Positions 7,058-50,864 are shown, numbered from the stretch's first letter. The stretch is DNA of 50,864 bases from Thermoguttaceae bacterium (GCA_039680305.1 JBDKTH010000436.1:1-50864); one strand, 5' to 3'. Numbers and translations: made by a program. Notes: generated by a model not told the origin, from the letters alone.

Positions 7058-7136
7058 GCCTCATGTGGCTTGGTCAGCCTCGTGGAATCAGCCGACTTCT
7101 TCCGAGAGCTCACCTCCAAATGAAAGGAACCTGACT

Positions 7137-31272: not shown

Positions 31273-31794
31273 ATGGCCCAGCAGTCAACTCGCTCCGCGA
31301 ACTATGAGCGTCCAGGGCATGGACCATTGCATCGCCTGCTGGCTTGGAGCGGGACTTTTTCGATTGCGTTGGCTGTCATGCTGGGCGTTCTCGGCGGCAT
31401 CGGGGCCTTCACCTTCGGCTACGGCCAAGGCAGCAGCTATCTGAGCAATAATCCGCAGGCCTGCGTCAACTGCCATGTGATGCAGGAACATTACAATTCG
31501 TGGCAGAATTCCAGCCACCATCATGTGGCGGTCTGCAACGACTGCCATCTGCCGCACGATTTCGTGGGGAAGTGGGCGACCAAGGCGGACAATGGCTTCT
31601 TTCACTCCCTGGCCTTTACCCTCGAGAATTTCCACGAGCCGATCCAGATCAAGCCGCGCAACCGGCGCGTGACTCAAAACGCCTGCCTGCACTGTCATCA
31701 GGCGACCGTCCACCAGATGCTTCCCGCCACAGGCGAGGGGGAGATGCTTTCGTGCGTCCACTGCCACAGCGACGTGGGCCATGCCCACCGATGA
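31273..31794 (+). CDS. nrfH: NrfH, tetrahaem NapC/NirT-type quinol dehydrogenase (start codon uncertain)
   Basis: N-terminal TM helix. Four CXXCH: CVNCH, CNDCH, CLHCH, CVHCH. Confidence 0.85.
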   Translation: MAQQSTRSANYERPGHGPLHRLLAWSGTFSIALAVMLGVLGGIGAFTFGYGQGSSYLSNNPQACVNCHVMQEHYNSWQNSSHHHVAVCNDCHLPHDFVGKWATKADNGFFHSLAFTLENFHEPIQIKPRNRRVTQNACLHCHQATVHQMLPATGEGEMLSCVHCHSDVGHAHR

Positions 31795-31891: not shown

Positions 31892-33646
31892 ATGAGCCCC
31901 GAACACGCCGATCAGCAAGGGCCTGCTGTTCAGGAAACCACCACGTCGAGCGACACAACCGTAGCGGGCCGCAGTTGGGTGCGCCGCCGCCTGCTCCTGC
32001 TCTCGGGCCTGTTGGCGGTGGTGGCGGTGGTGACCTTTGGCGTCACGGCGCTGCTGGTGACCATCTTCGAGCATCGCCAGGAAGCCCGCACCCCGTTCGT
32101 TCGACGGGTCGAGGTGGATGAGGTGACCACGGATCCGGCGCCGTGGGGGATCAACTGGCCCTCCCAGTTTGACACGTACCGGCGGACGGTCGACGTCACC
32201 CACACGCAGTATGGCGGCTCCAGCGCGATGCCGGCCAGCAAGCTCGAAGAGCAGCCGTGGCTGCGCCGCCTCTATGCCGGCTACGCCTTCAGCCTCGACT
32301 ACCGCCACGCCCGGGGGCATGCCTACATGCTGTTCGATCAGGAGGTGACGGAGCGCGTGACCAAACGCCCGCAGAGCGGGGCCTGCTTGCACTGCCACGC
32401 GTCGGTGATCCCCACCTATCGCCGGCTGGGCCTGGAGGCGCAGGGCAAACCGGCCGACGCCCAGGCGCTGGCGGCCGGGTTCAACTGGCCGGCGGTGATG
32501 GAAGGCTTCCGACGGGCCTCGACCATGGACTACGCCACGGCCCACGCGGAACTGCTCAAGACGCCGGACGGCACGCCCGGCGAGAACCGGAAGCTTTTCC
32601 CCGGCGGCGCCCCGGTCAAGGCACCGACAGCGGCCAAGCCTGAGGAGGCCTCCAAACCATCCGTTGACCCGCACGGGCACGACCGGCTGGGCGAGGCCCA
32701 TCCGGTCAGTTGCGTCGACTGTCACGATCCCGAGACGTTGCAGGTCCGCGTGACCCGGCCCGGTTTCGTCTTGGGCATCGCGGCGCTGGCCAAGAGCGAC
32801 GCCCCCCTTCCGCACCTGCCGAGCATTGAACGATGGCGCCAGGGCGACCGCAAGGAGCCGTACGATCCGAATCAATTGGCCAGCCGCCAGGAGATGCGCA
32901 GCTTCGTCTGCGGGCAGTGTCACGTGGAATACTACTGTGCCAACAAGGAAACGCTCTTTTTCCCTTGGAACAAAGGTTTGAAGGTCGAGCAGATTGAAGC
33001 GACCTACGACGAGCACCGCTTCCCCGATGGCAGCCCGTTCTACGACTACGTCCACGGCGAGACCGGCGCGTACGTCTACAAGGCCCAGCATCCGGAGTTC
33101 GAGCTCTGGAGCCAGGGCGTGCACGCGCGCAGCGGCGTGACTTGCGCCGACTGCCACATGCCCTACGAGCGTCAGGGGGCGATGAAAGTCAGCAGCCATT
33201 GGGTCCGCAGCCCCATGCTGAACATCAACAACTCCTGCCAGACCTGCCACAACGTGCCTGAGGCCGAACTGCGCGAAAAGGTCGAGACGATCCAGAACCG
33301 TACCGTCGCGATGATCGATCGGGCGGCCGCCGCGATGACCGATATGCTCGACGCGATCCGCGAGGCCCAGGCGGCCGGCGCGACGCCCGAGCAGCTGGAG
33401 CCGATCTTTGCACTGCAGAAGAAGGCGATGTGGCGGCTGGATTTCATCAGCAGCGAGAACTCCCGGGGCTTCCACGCCGATCAGGAGGCGGTGCGGATCC
33501 TCGGCGAGTCGATCGACTACAGCCGACAGGCCCAATTCCAGGCCGTGCGGCTGCGTGCCCCGGCGGCGCCGCCCGCTAAGCAGCCGGTCGAGCCGGTCCA
33601 TGGGGTAACGCCTACCGAAAAAGCTCCGCCGCGCCCAGGACCATGA
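31892..33646 (+). CDS. nrfA: NrfA-type pentahaem cytochrome c nitrite reductase
   Basis: Five CXXCH (CLHCH, CVDCH, CGQCH, CADCH, CQTCH). NrfA-like [21 protein letters not shown] and [10 protein letters not shown]-terminal TM/signal anchor. Confidence 0.85.
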
Positions 33647-33677: not shown

Positions 33678-34778
33678 CTAGCATGTTTCGGCGCTCGATC
33701 CGCCCGGTTCGTGCGCGATCGTACGAATTGCCGTCGTCCATCGTGAGGCGGCTTCCGGCGTGTCCGCGTCCTTCCACGCATCAACAAGCTCGACGGGAAC
33801 TTTCACGATACGACTCTTCGGGTGTCGTGAGATCTCTCGCAGACCGCTGTGGCTCCACGCGGCAATCGACTCGATCGCCTTGCGACATCGGAAGTCATAC
33901 CATGCCAGGAGAGGTTCTACGGCCCCCCCCTCCAACACCCGTGGTAGTAACGCCCATACGCCAGGTCTTCGCTGCGACAGGACCCACGATACTGCCTGCC
34001 GCGACAGCAGCGGCAAATCGCAGGCCGTCAGCAACCACGTCGCCCGAGGCGCCCAGCGCATAGCCGCCAAGAGGCCGGCCGTGGGCCCCTTAGTACCAGG
34101 CGAGTCTGGAAGATGCGGCAGATAGCGAAGGTCCTCCGGGACATCTCCGCGGCCAGCAAGCACCACTTGCGAACAGCAAGCCTCCAGAGCAGAAACGGTT
34201 CGGTGCAACCAGGTTCTGCCGGCTCCGTCAGCATCTGGAAGCAGATGCTTCGGACATCCCATCCGCGTGCTGCGGCCTCCGATCAAGACGCAGCCGAACA
34301 CCGGGGCAGTCCGCGATCGTTCGCTGACAAACTGCAGAAGGACGTTCTCAAGCACGGAATCACGATCGGCCGCCCAGGGCAAGATCGGGTCAAAGGGCCC
34401 CAGATCATCTGGTGGCGAGTGTTCATCGCGCCCGAGAAGCCACGTCTTCCGGCACGGGAGCCGCTTGAAGCCTTCGAGCAGGATAAGGTCGTAACGAGCG
34501 GCAAGACGGTCGAGCTCCCACTCCAGCGACGCGTCTTCCTGATGGAGACTTCGCGAAAGTGACTCGCCGGGCCCGCGCACGATAACATCTGCGCCTGCGA
34601 GAAAGAGTCGATCGCTATCCTTGTCCGGACAGTCGCGGTCGATTCCATGGACGTCATGTTTGACCACGGCGACCCGAAGCCCACGCCGGACAAGCCGAGG
34701 CAGGATCCTCGCCAGCAGCGTCGTCTTCCCCGAGCCGCTATAGCCGCAGACACCGAAGACAGGTAGTGAGTCAAACAT
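33678..34778 (-). CDS. mobA: MobB-MobA fusion (Mo-cofactor guanylyltransferase with its adapter)
   Basis: N-terminus VFGVCGYSGSGKTTLL...VAVVKHD (MobB). C-terminus VFGCVLIGGRSTRMGCPKHLL (MobA). Confidence 0.85.
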   Translation of the reverse strand: MFDSLPVFGVCGYSGSGKTTLLARILPRLVRRGLRVAVVKHDVHGIDRDCPDKDSDRLFLAGADVIVRGPGESLSRSLHQEDASLEWELDRLAARYDLILLEGFKRLPCRKTWLLGRDEHSPPDDLGPFDPILPWAADRDSVLENVLLQFVSERSRTAPVFGCVLIGGRSTRMGCPKHLLPDADGAGRTWLHRTVSALEACCSQVVLAGRGDVPEDLRYLPHLPDSPGTKGPTAGLLAAMRWAPRATWLLTACDLPLLSRQAVSWVLSQRRPGVWALLPRVLEGGAVEPLLAWYDFRCRKAIESIAAWSHSGLREISRHPKSRIVKVPVELVDAWKDADTPEAASRWTTAIRTIAHEPGGSSAETC

Positions 34779-35739
34779 GAGCTGACTTCAATGAAATGGG
34801 TCGCCCGCAATCCGATACTTCGCCGCGCAGCGTCGCCAGGCCGTGTGGGAGAGCAGGTAGCACCACGCTCAGGTTCTCGCTTGCGGCCCGCACGGAACCG
34901 GGGAGATTCAGGATCAACGTCCGGCCACGGATGCCCGACGCTCCGCGGGAAAGCATGGCATGAGGGGAACACTGGAGCGACGCGGCTCGCATTGCCTCAT
35001 CCAGTCCGGGCGTGAACCGTTCCACGACGCTTCGGGTCGCCTCGGGCGTGACGTCGCGAGGACCAAAGCCGGTCCCCCCAACCGTCACGACCAGGTCGAT
35101 GGAGTGCCCATCGCAGTAGTGCCGAAGCCGCTCACCAATCGTATCTTTCTCATCCGGCAGGATGTCATTCGCGAAGACATGGGCGCCAAGTCCACCCTGA
35201 AGAAGCGAAGCAATTGCCGGACCGGCGGTGTCCACACTCTCGGCACGGCTGCAACGGTCGCTGATCGTCAGGACAACAGCCTGGAGTGTCGCACGTGCGA
35301 CGCTGTGGGTCACCACGGCCTCGACGCCGGCCAACACTTGGCCGCTCGCCTCCACGCGGGCGAAGAGCCCCCGGCGCGGCATAATGCAGTCACCCGTGAG
35401 GTGATGAATGCGACATGGGGCATGACAGGTCTTGCCGATCTGAGTGATCGAGAGCACAACGCTCGTTCCCAGGCGAATCTGCGAGCCGAGGCCAAGTTCG
35501 CCTAGCTTCAGCCCGGAAACAACGAGGTTCTCGGCGAATGCACCCGGTTGCAGATCGGGCAAGCCGTTGCGCCGAACCTCGTCAATATCCGCGCCGTCCA
35601 GTAAGCTAACTTGGCGATGCCATGCCCCGGCATGGGCGTCCCCTTCGATGCCGTGGTTGGCGGCAAACGTTGCCTGCGCGACGGGGGTCTTGCGTTCCCC
35701 CTTGCGCTGACTGATACAAACCGCTTCGACTCTGCCCAT
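34771..35739 (-). CDS. MOSC domain fused to a MogA/MoaB-type domain
   Basis: N-terminus VEAVCISQRKGERK...HGIEGDAHAG (MOSC). C-terminus VVLTISDRCS...DLVVTVGGTGFGPRDVTPEAT (MogA/MoaB). Confidence 0.8.
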   Translation of the reverse strand: MGRVEAVCISQRKGERKTPVAQATFAANHGIEGDAHAGAWHRQVSLLDGADIDEVRRNGLPDLQPGAFAENLVVSGLKLGELGLGSQIRLGTSVVLSITQIGKTCHAPCRIHHLTGDCIMPRRGLFARVEASGQVLAGVEAVVTHSVARATLQAVVLTISDRCSRAESVDTAGPAIASLLQGGLGAHVFANDILPDEKDTIGERLRHYCDGHSIDLVVTVGGTGFGPRDVTPEATRSVVERFTPGLDEAMRAASLQCSPHAMLSRGASGIRGRTLILNLPGSVRAASENLSVVLPALPHGLATLRGEVSDCGRPISLKSAHV

Positions 35740-35743
35740 CGCT

Positions 35744-36271
35744 TCACTCCTTTCGCCGCCAGTGCCCTGATTTGCCCCCTTGTTTCTCCAACAACCGAAT
35801 CGGTCCGATAGTAATGCCCTTTTCCAGCGATTTCACCATGTCATAGACGCACAGGGCTGCCACGCTGGCTGCCGTCATCGCTTCCATCTCAACGCCGGTG
35901 CGTCCCTGGCACTTGACCGTCGCCACGAGCCGCACCCGGCCGGCCTTCAACGTAGCAACGACGTCAACGACATCCAAAGGAAATGGATGGCAAAGGGGAA
36001 TCAACTCGGGCGTGCGTTTCGCGGCCATGATTCCGGCGAGTCTTGCCGTTTCCAGCACATTCCCTTTCGCACCGCCCCCCTGCTGCCGAATCATCCGTGC
36101 CACGGCCGGCCCGACCTCGACCCAGGCCTCGGCCACGGCGGCTCGCCGCGTGGACGGTTTGCCCCCCACATCCACCATGCGTGCGGAGCCGTCGGCAATG
36201 TGGGTCATCCGTTTGGGCGGAGCCTTTGCTTTGCGGGAAGTGAGATCGGTCCGCATGGGGTTCTCCATCAT
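35744..36271 (-). CDS. moaC: Cyclic pyranopterin monophosphate synthase MoaC
   Basis: LTHIADGSARMVDVGGK..., LIPLCHP, GRTGVEMEAMTAASVAAL. Confidence 0.9.
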   Translation of the reverse strand: MMENPMRTDLTSRKAKAPPKRMTHIADGSARMVDVGGKPSTRRAAVAEAWVEVGPAVARMIRQQGGGAKGNVLETARLAGIMAAKRTPELIPLCHPFPLDVVDVVATLKAGRVRLVATVKCQGRTGVEMEAMTAASVAALCVYDMVKSLEKGITIGPIRLLEKQGGKSGHWRRKE

Positions 36272-37513
36272 TCAAATGCGATGTGCCAGGAGACTGAAGG
36301 AGAGCGTGTGCCCGATCGGCAGTTCCTTCTGGCCCGGCGGCACTTCGACATACGCGTTGGCTTCATGGGAGTGGAAAATGTCGGCCGAGCTCGCCGCCGA
36401 AAGCGGGAGGATAGTCCAGCCATCGGGCGAGGGCGCCTCCGACTGGACCACGGCCGGCACGAACCGTGTTCGGCCACGGTCGGGCTGAAGCGGTGCGAGG
36501 AGGTGTCCCTGCCCGGTGGCCGTCTCGGTGCCGCGGCCGCCCATTCCGGCAATGGCGGCTCTCACATAGCGGCAGAAACAGAAGTGACATGCCAGCGGAT
36601 TGCCCGGCAGCCCGAAAAGCAGGCTCCGGCCTCGCCGGGCCAGCAGCAGCGGCTTGCCGGGTTTCTGCACGACCTTGTGGAAGAGGATCTCCGCACCCCC
36701 GTCGAGGAGCACCTCGGGGACGAGGTCGAAGGTACCCACCGAGGCTCCGCCGCTGAGCACGACAAGATCGCATTGCCCTGCCTCATCGAGGGCGGCACGG
36801 ATGGCGCCGCGGTCGTCGCCCACCAGCCTGCACATCGGCAGTGCCAAGCCGGAATCGAGTGCCAAGGCCGCTAGCATGAGGCCGTTCGAGTCGCGAATCT
36901 GGCCGTCGCGGGGGCGTTGCGAGCCGACGACGAGTTCCTCGCCGGTGACGATCAGGGCCATCCGCGGCGAGGGAATCACCGCAATCTCGCGCCGGCCGAT
37001 GCTTGCCAAGGCGGCGATTGCCAACGGCGTCACTACGGCGCCGTCCAGGATGACTTCCTCGCCCGCTGGACAGTCGCTGCCCACTTCGGCGATATGTAAA
37101 CCCGGCGGGATCGTCGCGGGCAAGACCACCCGGTCTGCGTCGTAGCGGATGTGCTCTTTCTGCACGACGGCTTCCGTGCCCGGCGGGCAGGCGGCGCCGG
37201 TCATGATCTCCACGCACCCCTGCGGGGTCACGCGATGAGCCATCGTTTCGCTCCCCGCTGGTTGTCGGCCGACGACGGCGATGGCTTGACCGGCGGAAGC
37301 CAGGCTCACTGCGTAGCCGTCCATCATGGCACGCCGGAAGGGCGGATAGTCACGATCGGCGTGAACCGACTCGGCCAAGGGCCGGCCCATCGCGTCGAGT
37401 AACGGTACTTGCCGGGCGGGCAATGGCGTAGCAGCATCAAGGACTATACGATAGGCTTCGGCGGGGGAAACCATGGTTGATACGCGACTCGTTGGACTGT
37501 GGGCGAGAGACAT
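36272..37513 (-). CDS. moeA: Molybdopterin molybdenumtransferase MoeA
   Basis: AGGAGA RBS. GQIRDSNGLML, LVVLSGGASVGTFDLV, VVQKPGKPLL, GLPGNPLAC. Confidence 0.9.
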   Translation of the reverse strand: MSLAHSPTSRVSTMVSPAEAYRIVLDAATPLPARQVPLLDAMGRPLAESVHADRDYPPFRRAMMDGYAVSLASAGQAIAVVGRQPAGSETMAHRVTPQGCVEIMTGAACPPGTEAVVQKEHIRYDADRVVLPATIPPGLHIAEVGSDCPAGEEVILDGAVVTPLAIAALASIGRREIAVIPSPRMALIVTGEELVVGSQRPRDGQIRDSNGLMLAALALDSGLALPMCRLVGDDRGAIRAALDEAGQCDLVVLSGGASVGTFDLVPEVLLDGGAEILFHKVVQKPGKPLLLARRGRSLLFGLPGNPLACHFCFCRYVRAAIAGMGGRGTETATGQGHLLAPLQPDRGRTRFVPAVVQSEAPSPDGWTILPLSAASSADIFHSHEANAYVEVPPGQKELPIGHTLSFSLLAHRI

Positions 37514-37528
37514 TGACCGATCTCCTGG

Positions 37529-38539
37529 TTAACCGCCGATCCATACCATTTGCCGCTTAGGCCAGGTTTCGCCCGGCGAGCACTTCGCTACGAGACAGGT
37601 ACGTATTCGCCCGGCGATCTCGTCCTCGTCACCGCGATGAAGTGGCGTCAGCAGGTCTTCGATGTGCGGGCTTCGCAGGCACGACACAAGGCGGCCGCGA
37701 CAATCGAGCCGCAGGCGGTTGCACTTTGCACAAAAAGGATGCGACACCGGTGTGATAAGACCGATCGTCACGGGGCGTCCCTCAACCGTGAAGCAATATC
37801 GCCGAGCCGTTCCGTCTCCATCCAGTTCGCCCAGGCAGGCAAACTCCTGTTCCAAGGCCGTCAGTGCCTCGTTGGCTGGCAGAAAGTCCGTTGCAAAAAG
37901 CGTCGCTCCCGGGCCGCACGGCATCAGTTCAATGAAGCGGATCTCGCAGCCAGAATCGACCGCCAATCGCACAAGCGAGCCCAGACGGCCACCGTTCACA
38001 CGGCGGATAAGCACGCTGTTGAGTTTGAGCTTCACAAAGCCTTCGGCCTGAGCCGCTCTGATTCCGGCCAGCACGCTGTCAAGCTGACCGCCGCGAGAAA
38101 GCGTGGTAAAGGCCGCCGGGTCCAGGGTGTCGAGGCTGATGTTCAGAGCGTCGAGGCCCGCCGCACGCAGCGGTCCGGCCAGCCGCAACAGCAATGAACC
38201 GTTCGTCGTCAACGCCAGCACTGCGTCAGGCAAGATCGCACGAAGGTTTCGCACAAGATCGACCAGGCCAGAACGCAGGAGCGGCTCGCCCCCCGTCAAC
38301 CGGAGTTTGTGCAAAGGGCGCACTCGATCGATGTACCGCACGAGTTCAAGAAGCTCCTCGTTGGATGCAGATGGTGGCGAGGATTCATCGCGGGCCGCTT
38401 TGGCAGGGCGGCAATATTGACAACGGAAGTTGCAGCGGTCGGTGACCGACAGTCGCAAATACAGTGGTTGCTGGACCGTCCGGAGACAATGGAACACGCT
38501 CGTTTCCTTTCCTGGCACGGGCTGCGGCGAACCTACCAA
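37529..38539 (-). CDS. moaA: GTP 3',8-cyclase MoaA (radical SAM); TTG start uncertain
   Basis: LRLSVTDRCNFRCQYCRP (CX3CX2C), and C-terminal CAKCNRLRL cluster. Confidence 0.9.
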   Translation of the reverse strand: MVGSPQPVPGKETSVFHCLRTVQQPLYLRLSVTDRCNFRCQYCRPAKAARDESSPPSASNEELLELVRYIDRVRPLHKLRLTGGEPLLRSGLVDLVRNLRAILPDAVLALTTNGSLLLRLAGPLRAAGLDALNISLDTLDPAAFTTLSRGGQLDSVLAGIRAAQAEGFVKLKLNSVLIRRVNGGRLGSLVRLAVDSGCEIRFIELMPCGPGATLFATDFLPANEALTALEQEFACLGELDGDGTARRYCFTVEGRPVTIGLITPVSHPFCAKCNRLRLDCRGRLVSCLRSPHIEDLLTPLHRGDEDEIAGRIRTCLVAKCSPGETWPKRQMVWIGG

Positions 38540-38566: not shown

Positions 38567-39220
38567 CTATACGGGATTGTCTTTCGATTCGAGTCCTCGC
38601 ACCGCCTGGTCATCGGACACGTGACCAACTGTGCCCGATGGCGCGGTGGGACCCGCGCGCTGGCGCAGCAGTTCGGCTACAGTCGCGAGATAACCGATTC
38701 CCGACTGTTGCAGGGCCGTGGCCAGTGGCTCGGCAATCACGGCCAGATGCTCGGCCAGAAATCGCTGCGTTGCCTCGGCCGTGACCTCCCGTTCCTCGGA
38801 CTGACCGCCGAGCGAAGCATACGCCTGTTTCAATTGCATAAAGGCGACAAAGCCGGTTTCGACCGCGACATGGTCTGGCGATTCTGAACAGCGAGTCTGG
38901 TAGCCGAAGGCCTCGTAGTAGGCTTGCAGTTCGGACAGCAGGCCGCCGGGCACCATCGTCACGTGGTAGCTCACTTCCCGAGGGCTCGCCGGCCCACCAG
39001 GCCCGAGCGTGGAGTGGTAAAGACCAGCATCAGCCTCTTCGTGGGCCTGTCGAGCGGCAGCGGACAGGCTCTCGTCGGCTACCTCTGCTGCCAGCAAGAC
39101 CAACTCCTCACGCCACTCGGGTTCCGGTGGCTCAAACAACAGCCCCAACAGCCGCCACTCGACCGATTGTCGCAGGAGCTCGTAGGAGAGGCCGTCGGAA
39201 CTCGTCGATGGATTGCTCAT
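38567..39220 (-). CDS. TorD/NarJ-family redox-enzyme maturation chaperone (delta)
   Basis: ATGA overlap with the gamma gene. PDHVAVETGFVAFM and the surrounding helical pattern are typical of the TorD/DmsD/NarJ family. Confidence 0.7.
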   Translation of the reverse strand: MSNPSTSSDGLSYELLRQSVEWRLLGLLFEPPEPEWREELVLLAAEVADESLSAAARQAHEEADAGLYHSTLGPGGPASPREVSYHVTMVPGGLLSELQAYYEAFGYQTRCSESPDHVAVETGFVAFMQLKQAYASLGGQSEEREVTAEATQRFLAEHLAVIAEPLATALQQSGIGYLATVAELLRQRAGPTAPSGTVGHVSDDQAVRGLESKDNPV

Positions 39221-40086
39221 GGTTGCACCTCGAAAACCAAAGGGATCCAGGCGGTCCGCATCTTGCGGGCACCGACCTCCTGGCGTCCGCCTTCCCACAC
39301 GGCGAAGGCGACTTGGGAGCCGTTCTGCGGTGAGAGGCCCTTGGGTAAGTCGCGGGTAATGACCACGCTCCAACCGCTCGTGGTGCGGCGGCCGGCGCCC
39401 GTCGAGTTGCCGTCTGGTTTTGGGGCGAGAGTTCCCGGGCCCTCGGCGATCAGGTCTTGGACCGGCGTGTCCCGGGGGCCGGCCATCGTGTTGCCGACCG
39501 CCCGGGCCGGCGCATAACGGCCGGCCATTTCCCGTTGCGGAGCGGACCCCGACGGCAGGGAAGTTGCTTCAAAGGGGTAGTGGTCGACCGCGGCATTCGG
39601 GTAGATGTCACGAATCGAATCGCCGCGCCCATCGACGACCGCCTGCCAGGCGGCGTTCCATAGCACGATTTCCACCCCGCGTCCCAACTCGCCCATCTGC
39701 GGCGCGGGAACTGTCGCCGCGACGACCTGGGGAAGTTGCACGGCACAGGCATCCGTGAAGCGGGCCGCACCGCCCAGATCGTCCTTCGTGGGATCGGCCC
39801 ACGCCAGCCGGAATGCCAGGCGACGCCCGTCGGAAAGCGCACGAACGCGGACCTCGGCCGTCGAAAGCTTCAGCAATCGCGGCTCCACCAGATCCTGGGC
39901 GATGAGCTTGGCCACATGTTCGGGCGTTCCGTCCCAGACCGGGGCATCGGGCGTTCGGGGTAGCGCGGTGCACGCCGCCACCACCACGTCGGACAGAGGT
40001 GCCGGCGGCGGGGCCTGACGACATCCGGCCGAGAGGCAGACCGCCAAGGCACCCACGCTCGAGAGCCAGCCAATCGGGATTCGCAT
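39217..40086 (-). CDS. Gamma subunit: EB_dh-like (EbdC/NxrC/SerC-type) haem b domain with a lipoprotein signal
   Basis: MRIPIGWLSSVGALAVCLSAGC (lipobox), then WDGTPEHV...RVRALSDGRRLAFRLAWAD...AVQLP...FAVWEG, typical of type II DMSO-reductase gamma subunits. Upstream part of ORF 39217..41253 is out-of-frame overlap with beta. Confidence 0.7.
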   Translation of the reverse strand: MRIPIGWLSSVGALAVCLSAGCRQAPPPAPLSDVVVAACTALPRTPDAPVWDGTPEHVAKLIAQDLVEPRLLKLSTAEVRVRALSDGRRLAFRLAWADPTKDDLGGAARFTDACAVQLPQVVAATVPAPQMGELGRGVEIVLWNAAWQAVVDGRGDSIRDIYPNAAVDHYPFEATSLPSGSAPQREMAGRYAPARAVGNTMAGPRDTPVQDLIAEGPGTLAPKPDGNSTGAGRRTTSGWSVVITRDLPKGLSPQNGSQVAFAVWEGGRQEVGARKMRTAWIPLVFEVQP

Positions 40087-40169: not shown

Positions 40170-41261
40170 TTATGGACAATTGCTTCGCATGACTTGATGT
40201 TTGGAGTCGAACGCCTTGCGGATGTAGACCGGCTCTTTGAGCGGCACGCGGACGATCTCGCGCCCGTTGTCCTCCAGCGCGCTGATCCAATCGTCCTGAC
40301 GGCGCCAACGCGGCACGAGGCGGTCCGTGCAGCCGAACAGGCTCAGCAGGCCGGCCAGGTCGAGATCGTCCGGTGCGCTGCGGTAGGTCTGAATCGCCGT
40401 CGCCACACGGGGGCCAAACATCTGCGTAAGGAACGCGTCGGGGGCCTGGATCGGCGGAATGTAGTAGACGTTCGGCTCCAGGCCGAATTGAGGAAACAGC
40501 GGCAGTGCGACCTTGCGCACGTGCACGAGATAATCGAGGGGATTGTCGGGCTGAGCCTTCTCGGGCGGCGAGAGCCAGCCGGCCAGGCGGATCTTGCCGA
40601 TGCAATTGACAAAGCACTGCGGCTGCAGCCCCTGCTCGATCTTGGGGAAGCAGGCAATGCACTTCTCCGAGGTGCCGGTAAGCGGATTGAAGAAGACCTT
40701 CTTGTACGGGCATGCCCTCACGCACTCCCGGTAGCCGCGGCAGCGGCTCTGGTCTACCAGGACGATGCCATCCTCGGGGCGTTTGTAGATCGAGCCGCGC
40801 GGGCAGGAGGCCAGGCAGGCGGGATAGGTGCAATGGTTGCAGATCCGTGCCAGGTAGAAGAACCAGTTCAAGTGCGGGACCTGCATCGCCGCGCCGCGGT
40901 CGACCCGGCCGGCGCAATCGTCCTCGCCGACGTTCGGGTAGGCGTAGTCCAGATCGTCGGGACGCCATCCGAGCACCCGCTGGCCGGCCTGGGCGGCCTC
41001 GAAGATCGTGCGTCCGGCATACTGATTGCCCTGCCACTCCTGGGCCCCTAGCTTGGTGAGAAGGTTCAGGTCCCAGGCCAACGGGTAGCAGCCGTAGGGC
41101 TTCGACTCGACATTGTTCCAGAGCATGTACTCCTGGCCTTTTCCCGACGTCCATGTCGTCTTGCAGGCGAGGGTGCAAGTCTGGCAAGCGATGCACTTGT
41201 TGAGATCGAAGACCGCCGCAAACTGCCGTTTCGGCCGGTTCTCCGGATACCAATACGACAT
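40170..41261 (-). CDS. Beta subunit: NarH/NxrB-type four-cluster Fe-S protein
   Basis: [49 protein letters not shown]...CFVNC. Confidence 0.9.
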
Positions 41262-41299
41262 TGACCGACCGATCTGCCAGTTGTAAGCCAATGCCACGG

Positions 41300-44200
41300 C
41301 TAGCCTTCCTTTCTTTTGACAGGATGCGGAACGGCGCCGACGAGGAATTCGCCGGCGAGGTAGTGCGCCATCGCTTCCGATTCGTACATGGGGCGGATGC
41401 CCAACGCCGCGGGGCGCCAGAGGCCCTCGGCCTCCAGCCCGCCCGGCTCGGCGCGGGTGATCTTCACAATCGCCTCGCGCGGAGCGCCGGTCGGACAATG
41501 GACGTCGGGCATGAACCCTTCGCCGATTCCCTGGCCGAACATCGTCTTGCGGACCAGCGAATCGGTCATCAACGTGGGCTTCAGCCAGCCGCGGGTGGCC
41601 GATTGGTGCGATCCGGAACGGAACATTGCCTGGTACGGGGTCCGTGGATTCTTCGCCAAGCCGTCCTTGCGGACCCTCTGCCCCTCCTGCGAGCCAGGGG
41701 TGGTGCCGTACATATTGAACCACATCCGCGTCACGCCTCGCGGGGTGCCCGGGTAGTACCGCGCCCGACAGAGCAGCCGCGCGAATTGATAGTCCTTGGC
41801 GTTCTTCTGCCAGCCGCGGAAGGGGCGATCCTCGGGATCGGAATCGATCCACACGTAGTCGCCGTCTTCGACCCCCAGATCCTTGGCGTCGAGGGGATGG
41901 ATGTCGACGTAGCCTTCGGTCACGAAGGGACTTCGCTTGTCGCGCCGGTAGACGTCGCCAAACGGACCGAAGAGCATCGCCACCATGTCGGTGTCGATGG
42001 GCATCGTGTGGGCCCCATGGCGGTACTTCGGCGTGTGGAACACGAAGCGATAACCGTCTTTCGCCAAGGGATGGACCGATTGGCTCGTCTCGACCCAAGT
42101 CTTGACCACGTTGCGCCCGCAACGGGTTTCGCAGGAAAGATCGTCGCGGCTGACGCCGTACTTCTCCGGCCCCGCCGGACGAATCGCCTCGTGTTGCGGA
42201 GCCACGATCACGTTCGGCTCATAGAAAGTCGAGTCGACCGGCTCCCGGTGCACGGGCAGGTTCTCTCCCGCTTCGATGAATTCGTCTTCTTCGCGGTAGA
42301 GTTCCAGACGGCCGCTCTTCGTGTACCAGGGACGCGAATCGGTCACTTGCTCGTAACCGACGGCCTTCGGGCTCGTGCGGCTCTGGAGAATCGCCGGGAT
42401 CCCCTCCTTCGCCTTGGCCTCTAGGTCGCGGAACTCGTAGCCCTTCGCGTTGCAGGAATGGTCGAGAATCCGCTGCAGGTACACGTCGGTGCGTCCCTCG
42501 CGGACGAACTTCCAGTAATCGTTGAACCGCGTGTCGCCAGTGAGCGCGGCCATCTTGGAGGCCACCAGGGCCAGGACCTCGATGTCGCCAATCGTGTGGA
42601 AGATTCGCTTCAGCGGCGTTCGCGGAAAGATCGAGAGGAAGGGGTTCGTGACGGAAGCCGTCATATCGGGGTGTTTCAGCTCCGCCCACGAATCAACCCC
42701 GAACACCACGTCGGCCCACTCGCACGACGTGGACCACCACCACTCGTTCACGCAGATCATCTCGATTCGCGGCAGCATGTTCACCACCATGTTGTAGTGC
42801 CACTTCACATTTCCCAGGATGGAGTTGGCATTGGCGAACCAAAGCGACTTTGTGGGAGTCGGAATGTGGGTCAAGCCGGTGAGCAGGCGATTGCCCACTC
42901 GTAGCGGGTGGTCCTCGTGGTTGTAGTAATGGGCCGATTCCGACTTCCAATACTGTCGCGGGCGCGCCGGTTTGGCCGGATCCAGCTCGATGTCAAAGGG
43001 ATTTTCGTTGATGTACTGAGGGGCCCCATTGAACAGGGCAACGCGATGGTTGCCGGAGAAGGAGCCGACGTTGCCGCCGATCTTACCGACGTTGCCGGTC
43101 AGCGCCGCCACGAGAAAGATGTCGCGGTCCTTGCTGGCGTTGTTGAAGAACTGGTTCGGCCCCATCCCAAGCGCGAAGAGCGTGGTTCCCGGCTTTGCGG
43201 CGAAATGTCGGGCGAGCGACTCCACCGCCACGGCCGGCGCCCAGGTGAGCTCCTCGGTGGTCTTGGGATCGAAATGCTCGGCATACTCACGAACCAAGTC
43301 GAACACGGGACGGCAGCGGACCGTTTTGCCGTCGGCCAGTTTGACTTCAACGCTCCCCTCCAGCAGTGCTTTGCCGACCTTCGATTGCGTGCCGACCTGG
43401 TCGCGGGTCAAGGCCTGGGGCTTGGCCGAATCTTCGTTCCACCACACGTAGTCCCCCCATTTGTCGCGTATCGCGATGGGAATCAACATCTCCTTCTGCA
43501 CGCCTGCCGGCGGTTCTTGTTCGCCCTCGGCCAGAACGCGGGTGCTATTGGAAAGCTCGGCCGGTTGCCCCCCGAAGACCTCTTGGGCTCGGAGGTACTT
43601 GAGCGTGTCCATGCGGACCAACAGCGGCAGGTCCGTCCACTGGCGAACGTAGTCGATGTCATAGAGACGCTCGCGAAGAATCACGTGCGCAAGCCCCAAC
43701 GCCAACGCCGGTGTCGTGCCGGGGCGGACGACGATCGCGTCGTCGGCCTTGGTGCAGGTGGCCGAGTACTCGCAGGCGATCACCACGATCCGCGTCCCCT
43801 TGAGCCTCGCCTCGGTAAGCCAGTGGGCGTCGGGCATCTTGGTGGTGATCCAGTTCATCCCCCACACGACCAGCGTCTTGCAGTGTTCGACGGCCGAGAG
43901 GTCGAACTCGACGGCCTGCTGGCCGGTGACCATGGGGTGGCCGGGGGGGAGATCGGTATGCCAACTGAAGTTGTCGAAGCCCTTGGCCCCCAGGGCCTCG
44001 TCGGGCGGCACTTTGCGGATTGCCGCGTCCAGCAAGGCCAGCGAGTTGGCGAAACGATACATCCCGAAGACCCGCGTCATACCCAACAGCGGCATCCCGC
44101 CGCGAAACTTTAGCACCTGCGTACCGGCGCCCTGCGTGGCCTCGATCGTGAGCGGGTCGTAGTGTTGGGCCGCCAGCCGCTTCTGCCCCGCTTCGCCGGT

Positions 44201-44770
44201 GTAGGTCTCGGCGATGTTCCTCAGGGCCGCGGCGACGATTGTGGCCGCTTCGTCGTGCGACAGGCGGAGCCACTGATCGCGGGCCCGCTGGAAAAACTCC
44301 TCCGGCGGTCGTCCATCTTCCCCTCGCGGGAAGCCCGCTTCCACCCATCGCTTAAAGCCGGCCCGGACCATGCACTGGTTGACGCGGCGGTCCCCGTAGA
44401 AGCGTCGGGTTAGGACTAGGCCCTTCTGGCAGACCCGCGGGTCCCAGCGGTGGGTCGTGTGGTTGCCCTCCAGGTCGCTCGCCTCCCCGTAACGCATCGT
44501 GGGGCCGATGCGTGTCACCACACCGGAGCGTACATAGGCATTGAGGATGCAGTTGTGTGTATCGTTTGGAGCGCAGAGGAACGTGAACGTCGAGTCGTGT
44601 TTCCACAGATCCCGGTACGCCCGTTCCCAGTCGCGATCGGGGTAGGCAGCCAAGGGGTTGGTCACCGCGTCGAGGCCCCAAGCGCGGGTGGCCGACGCCA
44701 CAAAGGCCCCGAAACCGGCCGCGCTGGCTGTCGCAAGAAAGTCACGGCGGGATTGATGGTTCTGGCTCAT
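41300..44770 (-). CDS. Alpha subunit: Tat-exported molybdopterin oxidoreductase of the periplasmic Nar/NXR (type II DMSOR) type, 1156 aa
   Basis: GGAGA RBS. SRRDFL twin-arginine signal. N-terminal cluster motif C-APN-D-THN-C at 44549-44575. Very large size. Co-operonic beta, gamma and delta. Confidence 0.9.
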
Positions 44771-46434
44771 TTCCGCGTCTCCCAAGTGCGCAGGTAGGCC
44801 ACAATCGACTCGATGTCGGCGGGCGTAAGGATTGGGTAGATCGTTGAAGGATTGAGGAATCCGTGCATGGCAGTGCCGCGCCTCCCTCGGACGATCGTTT
44901 CTACGAGATAATCGTCCGTCGCCGTGGCAAGCAGGATTGGATTGTTAAGTGCCGGGGCATCGAGACCCTCGCCGCCAGCGCCATGGCAGCCCGCGCAATG
45001 GCGAGTGAAGAGCTCTTTGCCCCGGCTTGGCTCAGCATTGATCCAACGCGGGGCGAGATGGACGGGCGTCGGCGCGCCCACCTCGGCCGTCTGTCGGAGG
45101 TGGGCGATGATCGCCGCGATTTCATCCTTCCGCAACCCGCCAGCCGTTTCACTCCAGGCGGGCATCCGGCGACCGGGACGCCCCAACCAGATCGTCGCGG
45201 CGAGAAACCCATCGCTGGCGGTGGCCAGGAAATCCGCATTGCCGATCGCCGGGAAGGGCGGTGTTCCGGCGAAACGCCGCCCCTCGCCTGAGGCTCCGTG
45301 GCAGGCGGCACAGAACGTGGCGTAGAGCGTGGCCCCGTCCGTCCCAAATTCACGCTGCCCGAATCGCTCCGTCTGGATGCGGTCCTTGGGCCAATAGGCT
45401 TCCGGGACATCGCTCCTCCGCAACGAGAGCACGTAGTAGGTCAATAGGTCCACTTCGTCCTGGCTCAGTCCGAACTTTGGCATCTTTGAGCCGGGGACGA
45501 CGCGTGCCGGATCGCGAGTATGCTCGGAGAGCCAGTTGGCCAGCGTGTGCTCGCCCGAGACGTGGGCGAAGTCGAGTTGGCCGGGGTCTCGCAGTCCAAT
45601 CCGCGTCAAGTCTGGCCCGTCGTCGCCGCCAACGCCGCCGATCTTGTGGCAGCCGCGGCAGCCGAGGGAATGGAACAGGGCTTTCGCTTCGATCAGCCGC
45701 GGAGCGCCAACCCGCGATGTCAAATACGACTCAATCGTCTCGCGATCCATGGGGGCGAACGTGGAGAGTCTGCCCTTCCAAGCCTCATGGTCGGGCCGGC
45801 GCACACGTTGGAGATGTTTTTCGTGCCAGTCCTGGTCGAATCCGGTCACTCCGACCTTCGACAGATCAGGGCCCTCCATCCCGCCGGCCCCGCCGGGGCG
45901 AAGCGTGCCGCCGCGTCCGTCGATGCGATGGCACGCCAGGCAGTCGTGCCGCTCGACTAGGTTACGTCCGCGAACCAATTGGTCTTGGCTCGGCACCTGG
46001 AGATGGGTGTGGCAGCTTCCGCAGCCGGCATACGCATACCGCGTAGGGATCATCGGCTCCGGCCAGAAGTGAACCTCCCCATGGGCGTCGGCCTTGTCCG
46101 TCGCCCGTCCCTGTCCGCCGTGACAGACCGTGCAACCGAACTCCGCCGGGTCGTGGCCGACCGGCGGGTGGGCACAAGCCGCAGGATGCCCGCTGACGCC
46201 CTGCTTCCCTGGGGCCATGCCGACGTGGCAGGTCACGCAACGATCCGTGACGCCGAGCTTCGGCACGACGACCTGACGCAGACGCACCTCCAGCGGGCCA
46301 GCATCGGTCTGGACCGAGGTCTGGATTTGCCGCCACTCCCTCAGGAAGTTCTCCTGCACAGCCGCCGCGATCAGCAAGCCCAGCGTGCCGAGACTCGACC
46401 AGAGAAGCAGATGTTTGTTCTTGTTCATTGCCAT
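44767..46434 (-). CDS. Membrane-anchored cytochrome c with seven CXXCH motifs
   Basis: N-terminal [55 protein letters not shown]. The last four sit in class-I-like domains. Confidence 0.85.
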
Positions 46435-47984
46435 CAGTGCCTGGGCCAGTCGGCGGGAGACCAGTAGAAATCCCAGTTCGGACCGCGGAAGTAAGTGCCG
46501 ACCACCGTCAGCACGAGGAATCCGCAGAGGAAGCAGGTGAACAGCGCCAACGCGCCGGCCCGGGCCGACCCGTATCGCTTCACGATCCACAGGGAGTAAG
46601 CGGCATACATGGCGGCCAGAATCGTGCCGGGGTTGATCGCCGTAATCACCAACTGCGGGATTCCTGGAAACCACTCGCGCAGCCAGCCGAAGCGGATGGC
46701 AAAGGCCTCGATCGCCAACACGGCCACCAGGCCGAACCCGAGCGACCCCAGGACCAGTCGCACGCCGCCGGGCCCGCCAAACCACAGGCCCGTTCCGGTC
46801 TCTTCCCGGTCGAGGAACGGAATTAGCCCGAGCCCGACGAGGACAATCATGGGGATCCCGACTCCGCCCATGAACGCCGAATAGGCCACCAACTCCTGCA
46901 ACCCCAGGAAGTACCAGGGGGCTTTGGCGGGGTTCTCGGGAACACTCGGATTGGCCAACTCCTTCAATGGCGCGTCGGAGACCATCGCCAGGGCAAGACA
47001 GAGGAAGAGCGTCACCATCAACACGCCGAGTTCGGCATAGAACAGGTGGGGCATCGAGGGGACCGTGTTTTCCGGCCCGCGTCCGACGGCGGGAGAGACG
47101 CCCCTGACGACCGCCGCTAGATGATAGGTCTTGGCCGGCGCCTCGGTAAACACCGGATAAACGTCTGATGCGGGTTCCAGACGCTGATCGGCATCCACGG
47201 GCCGGGTCATGCCTCCATCCTTCCGGATTCGCCAGAAGTGGACCGCCAGCAGTCCTACGACTGCCAAGGGGAGAATCGCCACATGCAGCACATAGAAGCG
47301 GATCAGGGCCTCTTCCCCGACGATATCGGAGCCCAAGAGCAACTGCCGCTGCAGTCCACCCGGATCAAAAACCTGTGTGATGCCATGCACGTCGGTCAGT
47401 TCTCGGGGCGACTGGGCGATATTGGCGCCGATCGTGATCGCCCAGTAGGCGAGTTGATCCCAAGGCAGCAGATAACCGGTGAAGGAGAGGCCCAGCGTGA
47501 CCACCAAGAGGCTCATGCCGATGAGCCAGTTGAACTCGCGGGGTTTTCGGTAAGCGGCCGTGTAGAAGGCCCGCGCCATGTGAAGCAACACGGCAACGAC
47601 CATGATGTTGGCCGCCCACCGGTGGATGTTGCGGATGAAACGGCCGGTCGGCACGACAAAGTGAATATCCTTGATCGAGTCGTAGGCCACCTCGGGGTAC
47701 GGCTTGTAGTAGAACATCAACAGCACCCCGGTCACGAGCGCAATGAGGAAGGCAGCGGTAGCCGCGATTCCCAGCCCCATAGTCGTGGACCACCGCAAGC
47801 TCCAGCGATGCGTCCGCACCGAGTGAAGATGGAGGAAGACATTGCCGAACACGAAGTTCGACCGCGTGCGATCGGTGGTGGGAGGTCCATTGCGCAGCGC
47901 CGAGTCTCGAATGCGCCACGGGGCTCGGACGAGGTCTCCCAAGAACTTCCGCAGCGGCCTGTCTTCCGTAGCATTCGTGTTCAT
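46434..47984 (-). CDS. Cytochrome b (fused b6 / subunit IV-like), 516 aa
   Basis: [52 protein letters not shown]. Confidence 0.9.
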
Positions 47985-48466
47985 ACGCGCACCTTGGTTC
48001 CTGTGGAGACCGTCGCGCCCTCATCGATCAGACATTCCGAGCCGCTGATCGTGACGGGGTGCCAGGGAAGCGCCTTGGGGGCTGGTCCGCGGAGCACGCT
48101 TCCGTCGGCCGCGAAGTGAGAGCCGTGGCACGGGCACTCGAAGCCTTCCGGCACGGGCTTGACAATACAGCCCAGGTGCGTGCAGACCGTGGAAATCGCG
48201 TACACGCCCTCCGCATCGCGGAAGAGGGCCACGCTGCGACCCGGCGGCACGAAGGGCTGGCCGGGCGCCAGCGACTCGGGAAACGTCACGCGGAACTTCT
48301 TCGACGGGGAGGTCAGCACGGCCGCCTTGGGCAACCGCAGCATTCCCAGGCCGGCGAAGGCGAGGGCCGCCAGCAAGGAGCCCAGGGCCGAGAGCCCCAG
48401 GACATCACGACGCGGCACGGGCTCCGGATCAAGGCGAGAGCGAGACTCGGCGAGCGGGACGGTCAT
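47981..48466 (-). CDS. Rieske [2Fe-2S] subunit (alternative start 48478)
   Basis: PRRDVLG Tat-like anchor. CTHLGC...CPCHGS. ATGA overlaps at both ends. Confidence 0.85.
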
Positions 48467-50385
48467 AGGGTCCTCCATTGGGTCGAACAAGCCACTCGCT
48501 CCATGCTGATCGCATCCGCCGGGCATCGCATGGCGCACAGCGCGCAGCGGATGCAACGGTCCTCGTCCTTGAGGATGGCCGAATGCTCCGCTCGAACGGC
48601 GTCTGCTCCGAGGAAGGTGTCGACGAGAGCGTCGAGGTCCGCGCCCGGTTCGATCTCGGCCAGGGAGGCCAGTTTCAGGCATTGCGTGGGACAAACATCG
48701 ATGCATCCGCCGCACAGCACGCATCGGCTCCCGTCGAACACGGGCGTGACCCCGCAATCCAGGCAACGCGACGCTTCCCGCTGTGCCTCGGCAGGGCTGT
48801 AACCGCATTCGACGACCATATCCGGTCGGCGCAAACGCTCTACCGGCTCAGTCGTTGGAACCGGTGCACGGCGGATGGCCTCGTAACCCGGCTCCCGCTG
48901 ATACCGTTCCAGCGTCAGATGGACGGTGATTGCCTCGGCCGCAAGCTGCCGCCCCGTAACGTGACGGTACACCGATCGCGCGGCCGCTTTGCCCGATGCC
49001 ACGGCGTCGATCAGTAATCTCGTGCCATGGGCCAGATCGCCGATGGCGAACACGCCATCGGCGGTGGTGGCCAGCGTGTCCGGATCGACTTTCGGCCAAC
49101 CGGGGCGGTGCTGCTCGATGTCCGTGCCGCCGTCTTCCAGGAACGCGAGGTCCGTCGCCTGCCCGACCGCCAACAGGACCGTGTTGCAGGGGACCGTCCG
49201 GCGTTGGACGTCGTCGTACTGAGGCGAGAAGCGGCGGTTTGCGTCATAAACCCGAAGACAACGACGGAAGGTCACGCCGCACACCGCTCCGTTGGCGTCC
49301 CGCTCGATCGCCACCGGCCCCCAGCCGCCCATCCGCTCGATACCCTCTTCATCCCCCTCGATGATCTCCACGGTGTCGGCCGGCATGTCTTCGAGGGTCT
49401 CCAGCGACACCAGCGTGACCTTGCCGGTGCCGGGCCGCCGGGCGGCGGTACGGGCCGTGTCGAGGGCGATCTGACGAACGACCGTCCGTGCGACGTCATA
49501 GGCCACGTTACCACCACCGAGGACCACGACCTCGCGTCCCATCTCCAGCGTCTCCCCCAACGCGACCGCACGCAGGAGGTCGACACCGCCGAAGACACCC
49601 GGGCCGCTTTCGCCGGGAAGCCCGAGACTCCGCGAGCGTTTGGCGCCAACGGCGAGAATCACGGCCTTATAGTCCCGTCGGAGACTGGCAAGCGAGACGT
49701 CTTTGCCCACAGTTACGCCGCAATGGATCTTGACGCCCAGGGCCTCGATGACCGCCACTTCCCGGCGGATCAAGTCGCGCGGCAAGCGGTAGGCCGGCAC
49801 GCCCAAGGCGAGCATGCCCGCCGGAATCGGCTCCGCTTCAAATACGACCGGACAAAACCCCATCAGGGCAAGGTCGTGTGCGGCGGCCAGCCCCGCAGGT
49901 CCGGCGCCGACAATGGCGATCGACTCTCCCCCGGCCGGCACGAACTGGCCGGCGACGCCTGCGCGGAGCAGCGAGGCCATCTCCTCGGCGTCCGCCGACG
50001 CTGGGGGCGTCGCCCCGCGAAGGGCCTGGAGGGCCTCCTCCGCCGTGCAATCGTCGAAACCGGACTGTTCATAGGCGAAGCGTTTTAACGCGCGGATCGC
50101 CACGGGCCGGTCCTGGGCCACGAATCGTCCGTCGGCATCGACGCGGGGCACCTTTCCGCGTCGGCAGGCCGCCTCACACGGCGCGCCGCAGATGCGCCCA
50201 CAAATCGACGCCAGCGGATTGGGGCCTCGGGCGATCAGGTACGCTTCTTCCAAGCGCCCAGCGGCAATGGCTCGCACGTATCCTCGGGCATCGGTATGCA
50301 CCGGGCAGGCAACCTGGCAGGCGATCAGGTTGCGATGATAGCCCGCACCGGGAATGTCCACATGGATTGGAGCCAGAGGGTTCAT
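48463..50385 (-). CDS. GltD-like FAD/NAD(P)-dependent oxidoreductase with a C-terminal 2x[4Fe-4S] ferredoxin domain
   Basis: [10 protein letters not shown]...[47 protein letters not shown]-terminus CLDCG...[12 protein letters not shown]...[12 protein letters not shown]. Confidence 0.85.
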
Positions 50386-50397
50386 CGACGGTCTCCC

Positions 50398-50864
50398 TTA
50401 GCCTGTCGCGGTTCCAGCCTTTCTAGAGTGCTTCTTGCCGGGCCTCTTCGAAGGCTTTGGAGATTCAACAACTGCGATCGACTGAAGCCGAGGACACGGG
50501 GCCAGCCAGCACTGCACCTGATTGGCAATGGAAGGGGCGGGGCTCGGCCGGCTCAAGAAATCCGCCAGTGTCCAGCGGGAAAGGACACTCACGATGGCGT
50601 GGTGAAGTTCGACCCCCGCTTGGTGAAATGCGCAGGTCTTTGACGAATCCGTGGCATCGCTGCAGAAGTCGCCGAGGATGGTGCCTTGACAGGCCTCGAC
50701 GACCGAGAGCAGAGAGATGTCACTGGGGGGACGATTAAGCGAGACTCCCCCGGCGACACCGCGGTGAGCCTTGAGTATCCCCACCCGGACAAGATGTCGG
50801 ACGACTTTGGCGAGATAGGTAGGCGATTCGCCGAGATGCTCGGCCATCAATCGCGGCGACCAGG
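50398..50864 (-). CDS. Rrf2-family transcriptional regulator, N-terminus cut by the window edge
   Basis: ...SPRLMAEHLGESPTYLAKVVRHLVRVGILKAHRGVAGGVSL (winged helix), then C-x8-C-x9-C-x2-H. The reading frame stays open to base 50864. Confidence 0.8.
   Translation of the reverse strand, partial: WSPRLMAEHLGESPTYLAKVVRHLVRVGILKAHRGVAGGVSLNRPPSDISLLSVVEACQGTILGDFCSDATDSSKTCAFHQAGVELHHAIVSVLSRWTLADFLSRPSPAPSIANQVQCWLAPCPRLQSIAVVESPKPSKRPGKKHSRKAGTATG

Follow-up and report, generated by a model that had tools for sequence, protein, structure and literature searches.

Two gene clusters of the anaerobic ammonium-oxidizing (anammox) bacterium Kuenenia, R/b-2 (Kuste4569-4574) and R/b-3 (Kustd1480-1485), encode Rieske/cytochrome b (R/b) complexes that share a Rieske protein, a b6-type cytochrome b, an extended subunit IV with five transmembrane (TM) helices, a GltD-like Fe-S flavoprotein (homologue of Kuste4570) and a membrane-anchored multihaem cytochrome c. 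The subunits of the Kuenenia R/b complexes all co-migrate, and AlphaFold3 models place a path from haem bN through an extra haem b and Fe-S clusters to FAD (PMC12954380); on the basis of such models, His43 of Kuste4571 was proposed as a ligand of this extra, inter-monomer haem b. The Kuenenia Rieske potentials are +303 and +335 mV, the latter being that of Kustd1480, and one of the two complexes lacks a proposed exergonic partner reaction. Also known are the periplasmic nitrite oxidoreductase (NXR), the archaeal nitrate reductase pNar, whose haloarchaeal nar operons run Rieske, cytochrome b, x, NarG, NarH, x, NarJ and for which a Q-cycle has been proposed, and the co-occurrence of subfamily G cytochromes b with NAD(P)-binding Fe-S oxidoreductases (Dibrova et al. 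2017). The same study described a clade G' with long (fused) cytochromes b, CxGG glycines that are partly kept and large conserved operons without known function. Here, we analyzed a 50,864-nt stretch of DNA from a Thermoguttaceae bacterium (GCA_039680305.1, JBDKTH010000436.1:1-50864; this whole stretch is called the window), in which a flavoprotein-R/b module adjoins the genes of an NXR-type molybdoenzyme. Our reading, on which we are evenly balanced, is that the module makes up the first half of a respiratory cassette that is self-contained and has spread laterally, a single chain that would reduce nitrate in the periplasm while its flavoprotein reduces NAD+. Literature searches found no description of the cassette, of its NXR link or of its distribution; it may correspond to clade G', for which neither an NXR link nor a function was stated (Dibrova et al. 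2017).

The whole cassette lies on the minus strand. It opens with a GltD/NfnB-like Fe-S flavoprotein of 640 amino acids (aa) (48463..50385; Pfam/NCBIfam matches and motifs), which is followed by a Rieske [2Fe-2S] protein (47981..48466, 161 aa, PF00355), a fused cytochrome b6 and subunit IV (46434..47984, 516 aa; Cytochrome_B / Cytochrom_B_N_2 matches with an ExtQ C-terminal half) and a membrane-anchored 7-haem cytochrome c (44767..46434, 555 aa). The molybdoenzyme genes come next and encode an NxrA-type molybdopterin catalytic subunit with a twin-arginine translocation (Tat) signal (41300..44770, 1156 aa), an NxrB-type Fe-S subunit with a GTG start (40170..41297, 375 aa), an NxrC-type haem b subunit of the EB_dh fold with a lipoprotein signal (39217..40086, 289 aa) and, called from domain matches, a NarJ/TorD-like assembly chaperone (38567..39220, 217 aa). 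The five genes from flavoprotein to NxrA are chained by overlapping stop and start codons. These take the form of ATGA at the junctions of the flavoprotein (TGA stop) with the Rieske ATG and of the Rieske stop with the cytochrome b ATG, of TGATG with a 1-nt overlap between cytochrome b stop and cytochrome c ATG, and of ATGA again where the cytochrome c stop overlaps the NxrA start; the chaperone ATG overlaps the NxrC stop as well. All details of the gene calls and coupling given in the initial annotation of the window (GltD-type protein, Rieske protein, fused cytochrome b and cytochrome with seven CXXCH motifs, joined to a Nar/NXR-type operon) were confirmed by open reading frames (ORFs) and Pfam/NCBIfam matches. 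Every NCBIfam match to the cassette proteins fell below the curated cut-offs, and no curated model covers them.

Relatives of the flavoprotein number in the thousands. The best 120 share a length of about 640 aa and an identity of 72-96%, and Methylomirabilis, Pirellulales and Phycisphaerae are among their named sources. Scans of species genomes (one genome per species) with the flavoprotein and of metagenomes with NxrA returned about 330 and 515 matches, respectively, which are matched stretches and not curated genomes. The best 80 of each were examined, those from the species scan being all metagenome-assembled genomes (MAGs) and those from the metagenome scan 76-88% identical; gene presence or absence was called by tblastn, and MAG labels may be wrong. 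The order flavoprotein-Rieske-cytochrome b-cytochrome c-NxrA-NxrB-NxrC-NarJ was kept, wherever the contig reaches, in 80/80 genomes and in 80/80 metagenome contigs, and every gene from GltD to NxrC was visible in 49 of the 80 species loci. When viewed from the NxrA side, the genes upstream were cytochrome c in 63/63 loci, cytochrome b in 59/59, the Rieske gene in 57/57 and the flavoprotein in 46/46. The initial annotation had named flavoprotein homologues routinely encoded apart from bc-type genes as one observation that would speak against the module; the 80 loci of close homologues held no exception, and linkage from NxrA was equally complete. The arrangement, which had been called unusual, is instead a rigid and widespread unit whose linkage is obligate and whose recurrence is far beyond chance.

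The best 80 species genomes belong to Planctomycetota (Pirellulales, Thermoguttaceae, Phycisphaerae), Acidobacteriota (Bryobacterales, Blastocatellia, Pyrinomonadaceae, Chloracidobacterium, Vicinamibacterales), Binatia, Myxococcales, Limnocylindria and others, and the cassette hosts include Methylomirabilota. Across phyla, NxrA is at least 70% identical (median 78%); the copies cluster roughly by order, with the Methylomirabilis copy grouping with planctomycete copies. The flanking genes beyond the cassette vary between loci, those for molybdenum cofactor synthesis included, and since genes outside are not conserved, the cassette behaves as an autonomous unit. An Rrf2-family regulator gene, the first of the operon here (50398..50864, minus strand; Pfam Rrf2, with a frame that runs off the window so that the N-terminus is cut), lies 12 nt upstream of the flavoprotein gene. 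In the wider set, Rrf2 took this position in 28/74 loci from genomes and 14/41 from metagenomes (about 35-38%), and the upstream ORFs looked heterogeneous. Recent acquisition was considered and rejected, as the GC content at third codon positions (GC3) of the cassette (0.69-0.83) matches that of other window genes and no tRNA gene is present in the window. From the NxrA identities and clustering, the varying flanks and the GC3 match, we regard the cassette as an old module under strong constraint, which was passed between phyla and is settled in this genome. Some contigs carried unexpected labels (L021, L024, L030, L034, L068 and L082; Clostridia, Heliomicrobium, Margulisiibacteriota or Bordetella) and are likely mis-binned or mislabelled; the full NxrA of L024, L030 and L068 groups with Acidobacteriota or Binatia copies. 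In one 3.27-Mb genome (L003/L009, 15618-19071), NxrA was called as two ORFs of 312 and 852 aa, which probably reflects a frameshift or long-read error.

To compare the module with its anammox counterparts, the Scalindua rubra R/b-2 locus (L006) was used as reference; a search with the Rieske fragment of 9rk4 gave at most 81% identity. The kinship with anammox clusters containing an NAD(P) oxidoreductase, suggested in the initial annotation, was borne out both by the identities to S. rubra (flavoprotein 38% over 624 aa, Rieske 34%, cytochrome b 42.5%, subunit IV 44%) and by the Rieske protein, whose best match among solved structures is the Kuenenia R/b Rieske 9rk4, which we take from its Ser/Tyr box to be Kuste4569. 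The comparison of sequence and synteny proposed there showed homologous subunits and differences in gene order, fusion, haem cN and partner. The S. rubra locus runs Rieske, flavoprotein, cytochrome b, subunit IV, hexahaem cytochrome and HAO-like octahaem protein, whereas the cassette begins with the flavoprotein gene, has cytochrome b fused to subunit IV and carries an NXR-type molybdoenzyme in place of the HAO-like partner of R/b-2/3. The cassette cytochrome has 7 haems with four class-I domains, compared to 6 or 8 haems in R/b-2/3, and only a 60-aa stretch around its first two haems aligns with the Scalindua hexahaem protein. The cassette hosts also differ, being non-anammox bacteria of several phyla. 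One anammox contig (L005) contained many ORF splits resembling frameshifts.

The Rieske protein carries one TM anchor (TM helices were called with a simple hydropathy window) and the cluster boxes CTHLGC and CPCHGS-x-F. The Ser-containing, high-potential-type box is common to the cassette and R/b-2/3, and the combination of Ser with Phe in box II is the pattern of Kustd1480. In cytochrome b, the haem-ligand histidines H121, H135, H234 and H249 are invariant among 73 sequences, as is the PWY motif of the Qo site. The hydropathy scan recovered 7 hydrophobic segments, and going by b6f topology the protein would have about 9 TM helices. The cysteine of the CxGG motif in helix A that carries haem cN is absent in 73/73 sequences, its position being taken by M, W, A, L or F, whereas Scalindua has WCLGG; because this cysteine is missing, the cassette cytochrome b is predicted to bind no haem cN. 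At the N-terminus, H52 and H54 of an HLH motif are invariant in 73/73 sequences and align with the THLH of Scalindua, whose first His is residue 43; the position equivalent to Kuste4571 His43 falls within this motif. The motif is common to the cassette and R/b-2/3, and its two histidines are probably candidate ligands of an extra haem. Further conserved histidines, to which we assign no role, are H108 and H313 (invariant), H59 (72/73) and the C-terminal H516 (71/73), and a CxxC at residues 484/487 in the last helix is also conserved. The cytochrome c has a single N-terminal hydrophobic helix (residues 8-26), followed by an N-terminal multihaem part and then the class-I cytochrome c domains; its seven CXXCH motifs (residues 66, 101, 138, 165, 259, 375 and 480) are all invariant in 61/61 sequences.

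The domains initially assigned to the flavoprotein were all found, with Fer4_20 at residues 22-107, Pyr_redox_2 at 155-465 and a C-terminal 2x[4Fe-4S] ferredoxin at 548-627, together with GxGxxG motifs at residues 160 and 290. No TM helix was detected by the hydropathy scan, and the protein is predicted to be cytoplasmic. Its core aligns with the NADPH-binding modules of NfnB, NfnA and StnC (E=1e-57 to 5e-70), and an FAD and NAD(P)H Rossmann core and an N-terminal 2x[4Fe-4S] domain are shared with NfnB, GltD and StnC. Unlike these proteins, the cassette flavoprotein has an extra C-terminal 2x[4Fe-4S] domain and a 13-residue insertion after the second GxGxxA, and its partner would be a membrane cytochrome b, compared to NfnA for NfnB or GltB for GltD. 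At least 99% of 83 sequences conserve 19 of its 25 cysteines (17 invariant, C376 and C400 at 99%), which suffices for two N-terminal clusters, two ferredoxin clusters and possibly one more. A further difference concerns the nucleotide site. The YRR motif for NADPH, which follows the second strand of the nucleotide domain in the solved relatives 9bov, 9n5u, 8oh5, 4ylf and 5vj7, is replaced by S327-L328-E329 in 83/83 flavoproteins, and by C-L-E in the proteins of Scalindua and of a further locus described below (L087). Rossmann folds that carry an acidic residue here usually prefer NAD(H). The invariant SLE in place of YRR therefore suggests that the cassette flavoprotein uses NAD(H), and by the same rule, applied to SLE and CLE, the "NAD(P)" of the literature may mean NAD.

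All three subunits of the molybdoenzyme have Kuenenia NXR (7B04) as their best solved relative. NxrA matched Kuenenia NxrA (7B04_B) over its full length (E=2e-249), compared to a partial match to Escherichia coli NarG (about 1e-32); NxrB matched 7B04_A (E=8e-106) and NxrC matched 7B04_C (E=6e-14). In NxrA, 57/57 sequences have an unchanged RR Tat motif, FS0 motif (CAPNDTHNC) and SWHTD segment. The FS0 motif conforms to the C-x3-D-x3-C pattern of Kuenenia (CSPNDTHAC), and SWHTD aligns with Kuenenia WHGD, so its Asp would be the molybdenum ligand. The set comprises an NxrB Fe-S beta subunit, an EB_dh haem b gamma subunit and a NarJ-type chaperone without a NarI, and Tat signal, FS0 type and EB_dh subunit are all common to cassette and Kuenenia NXR. 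Compared to the NXRs of Kuenenia, Nitrospira and Nitrospina, however, the cassette NxrA forms a separate and very tight clade in which pairwise identity reaches at least 70% even across phyla, NxrC is a lipoprotein, and the NXR is always preceded by the R/b module. The physiological direction is also probably opposite to that of these enzymes. The lipobox cysteine of NxrC (residue 23) is invariant in 43/43 cassette copies and predicts that the NXR is lipid-anchored, through NxrC, to the membrane on its outward-facing side. In the predicted topology, NXR, 7-haem cytochrome and Rieske head are periplasmic and the flavoprotein is cytoplasmic. A likeness to haloarchaeal pNar (NarB/NarC) was also observed in gene order, which runs Rieske, cytochrome b, small electron carrier, NarG, NarH, gamma subunit and NarJ and so places the first two genes ahead of a Tat-exported NarG-type enzyme that has no NarI and an active site on the positive side. 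The archaeal systems lack both the flavoprotein and the multihaem cytochrome c.

Taken as one chain, these parts would work as follows. The Qo site of the Rieske/cytochrome b complex would oxidize menaquinol, whose high-potential electron would pass from the Rieske cluster over the 7-haem cytochrome, NxrC haem b and NxrB Fe-S clusters to the molybdenum of NxrA and on to nitrate. The low-potential electron would cross the membrane through haems bP and bN, with no haem cN, and from bN would enter the Fe-S chain and FAD of a physically associated flavoprotein, probably via the extra haem at the N-terminal histidines. Reduction of NAD+ by the flavoprotein is the outcome we favour, which would amount to electron bifurcation as proposed for anammox R/b-2/3 with nitrate as the exergonic partner; the same wiring could also take NADH as electron input. 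With menaquinol at about -70 mV and NAD(P)+ at -320 mV, the uphill branch costs about 250 mV plus the membrane potential, whereas the downhill branch yields about 490 mV, the potential of nitrate being about +420 mV. We infer that quinol bifurcation to nitrate and NAD+ is the only chemistry that uses every part favourably. Nitrate respiration is weakly favoured by neighbouring nrfHA genes, by nitrosative-stress genes in a closely related genome (both described below) and by the haloarchaeal precedent. The broader idea that a widespread, laterally mobile bc-type complex bifurcates quinol outside anammox bacteria, with NXR-type nitrate reduction paying for NAD+ reduction so that NADH and proton-motive force are made together, is possible, and we advance it tentatively.

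Several observations weigh against this proposal. Kuenenia NXR, the closest characterized molybdoenzyme, oxidizes nitrite in vivo, and the sequence is silent on direction. The adjacency of nrfHA was seen in 0 of the other loci examined and is confined to the lineage of this genome. A role of the Rrf2 regulator as an NO sensor (NsrR) was rejected, since the full-length 178-aa homologue (L002) matched the superfamily model alone, with NsrR, IscR and RirA below their cut-offs. The AlphaFold 2 model of the flavoprotein had a mean per-residue confidence score (pLDDT) of 57, with the Rossmann core alone confident and the Fe-S domains poor. An ordinary Q-cycle with the flavoprotein as NADH input would fit a cytochrome b without haem cN too, and heterotrophic hosts have no obvious need of quinol-driven NADH synthesis. 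For this clade, moreover, the proposal draws on sequence comparison.

The main rival takes up that alternative Q-cycle. The flavoprotein would be an NADH dehydrogenase anchored on cytochrome b and would pass NADH electrons to the haems or quinone site of the N side; quinol formed at that site would be re-oxidized at Qo, from where electrons would reach nitrate over Rieske, 7-haem cytochrome and NXR. Such a Q-cycle would make the whole an NADH:nitrate oxidoreductase without any uphill step. The wiring and linkage described above agree with such a chain, as does the proposal that subfamily G cytochromes b serve as membrane anchors of cytoplasmic dehydrogenases (Dibrova et al. 2017). The replacement of YRR by SLE also suggests the catabolic carrier NAD(H), the loss of haem cN makes the N side bc1-like, and the hosts are mostly heterotrophs. 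The exceptionless linkage to a bc complex and a high-potential reductase would nevertheless be left unexplained, since any NADH dehydrogenase could feed the quinone pool; a high-potential-type Rieske box would not be needed, and among solved structures the flavoprotein core is related to modules (NfnB, NfnA and StnC) that bind NADPH in bifurcating enzymes. We consider an NADH-fed chain rather unlikely, though it deserves to be taken seriously.

The likeness of all three subunits to Kuenenia NXR, including the shared C-x3-D-x3-C FS0, would also suit a true nitrite oxidoreductase, from which electrons would travel via the 7-haem cytochrome to an oxidase while the R/b complex, reversed by the proton-motive force, supplies quinol or NAD(P)H. 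NXR-type genes of NC10 relatives have indeed been read in the literature as belonging to possible nitrite oxidizers. We rate this option as improbable because a reversed Qo site would need electrons from the b haems; with nitrite as donor, the flavoprotein would then have to consume NAD(P)H in a confurcation that is endergonic overall. Moreover, NXR is considered reversible in the literature, the Acidobacteriota, Planctomycetota and Binatia hosts are not known nitrite oxidizers, and the window context is nrfHA and not carbon fixation or an oxidase.

A different substrate for the same wiring, such as chlorate, perchlorate, selenate or another compound, seems slightly less probable again. The type II DMSO-reductase enzymes do include Pcr, Clr, Ser and Ebd, the NCBIfam matches lie below curated cut-offs, and the literature includes one NXR-like enzyme whose substrate residues are altered. 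NxrA nevertheless scored 833 bits against Kuenenia NxrA, compared to 165 against PcrA and 144 against EbdA; the surroundings of the molybdenum ligand and of FS0 match Kuenenia NxrA, and the nrfHA context fits a nitrogen oxyanion. Mere co-regulation of an R/b complex, a flavoprotein and an NXR as separate enzymes sharing an operon can be set aside as very improbable, for although the cassette is known in this clade from genes alone, about 126 independent loci from different phyla all show its gene order and overlapping codons, and the homologous Kuenenia subunits co-migrate.

Downstream of the cassette, and in the operon here though outside the conserved unit, lie genes for MoaA, MoeA, MoaC, MOSC/MoCF and MobB-MobA (33678..38539, minus strand; domain matches). 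Convergent with this operon are nrfH (31273-31794, plus strand; above the NCBIfam NrfH cut-off) and nrfA (31892-33646, plus strand; Pfam cytochrome c552, E=1e-111), and since both adjoin the operon, this genome could take nitrate to nitrite and on to ammonium. The best relatives at species level were Thermoguttaceae, and a 96%-identical copy of the cassette is carried on a 10.2-Mb contig (L001). There, the DNA upstream of the cassette (708-6776), beyond the point where the window stops, encodes a hybrid-cluster protein (HCP), a hemerythrin, a radical SAM protein and a qNOR-type NorB. Assigning a function from such neighbours was rejected, as nrfHA, qNOR, HCP and the molybdenum cofactor genes are not conserved beside the cassette elsewhere. 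Next to nrfH, a 1204-aa hybrid histidine kinase (27378-30992, plus strand) combines DUF4118, PocR, PAS, HisKA/HATPase, receiver and Hpt domains. Farther away, an HTH_17 excisionase-like ORF (642-1331), a tyrosine integrase (1379-2713), a weak resolvase-like ORF (2887-4914) and an AAA ATPase (7602-9164), all on the plus strand, possibly mark the region 642-9164 as an integrated mobile element; many ORFs after 9164, up to about 20 kb, gave no Pfam match. In an 899-aa protein (14215-16914, minus strand), a right-handed beta-helix / NosD-like region is the sole recognizable domain.

A related module was found in another genome (L087, GCA_964620445.1; 7812-18353), where flavoprotein, FixS, Rieske, cytochrome b, subunit IV and a 5-haem cytochrome are followed by a dihaem cytochrome c, CcoN, CcoO and FixG. 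Its flavoprotein and cytochrome b are 39% and 51% identical to those of the cassette, the HxH motif is kept and the haem cN motif is missing, and the 5-haem cytochrome aligns over 346 aa with the cassette cytochrome c, the first four haems being common to both. Because this module is followed by genes of a cbb3 oxidase, the flavoprotein-R/b unit pairs with three different high-potential sinks: HAO-like, NXR-like and cbb3 oxidase.

What bc complexes with an NAD(P) oxidoreductase do has been a question since they were noticed in anammox genomes, and here the partner is written into the operon. Hundreds of genomes hard-wire the module to a high-potential nitrogen-oxyanion enzyme, and a related module is wired to a cbb3 oxidase, which lends comparative support to the bifurcation idea and offers non-anammox hosts in which to test it. 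If the broader idea of quinol bifurcation outside anammox bacteria is true, much of the nxrA/narG signal that has been assigned, in soils, sediments and treatment plants, to Acidobacteriota and Planctomycetota would come from this machine, and not from nitrite oxidizers or classical Nar. In metagenomes, NXR-type genes should not be counted as evidence of nitrite oxidation where they belong to this clade, as they do in Acidobacteriota, Planctomycetota, Methylomirabilota and Binatia.

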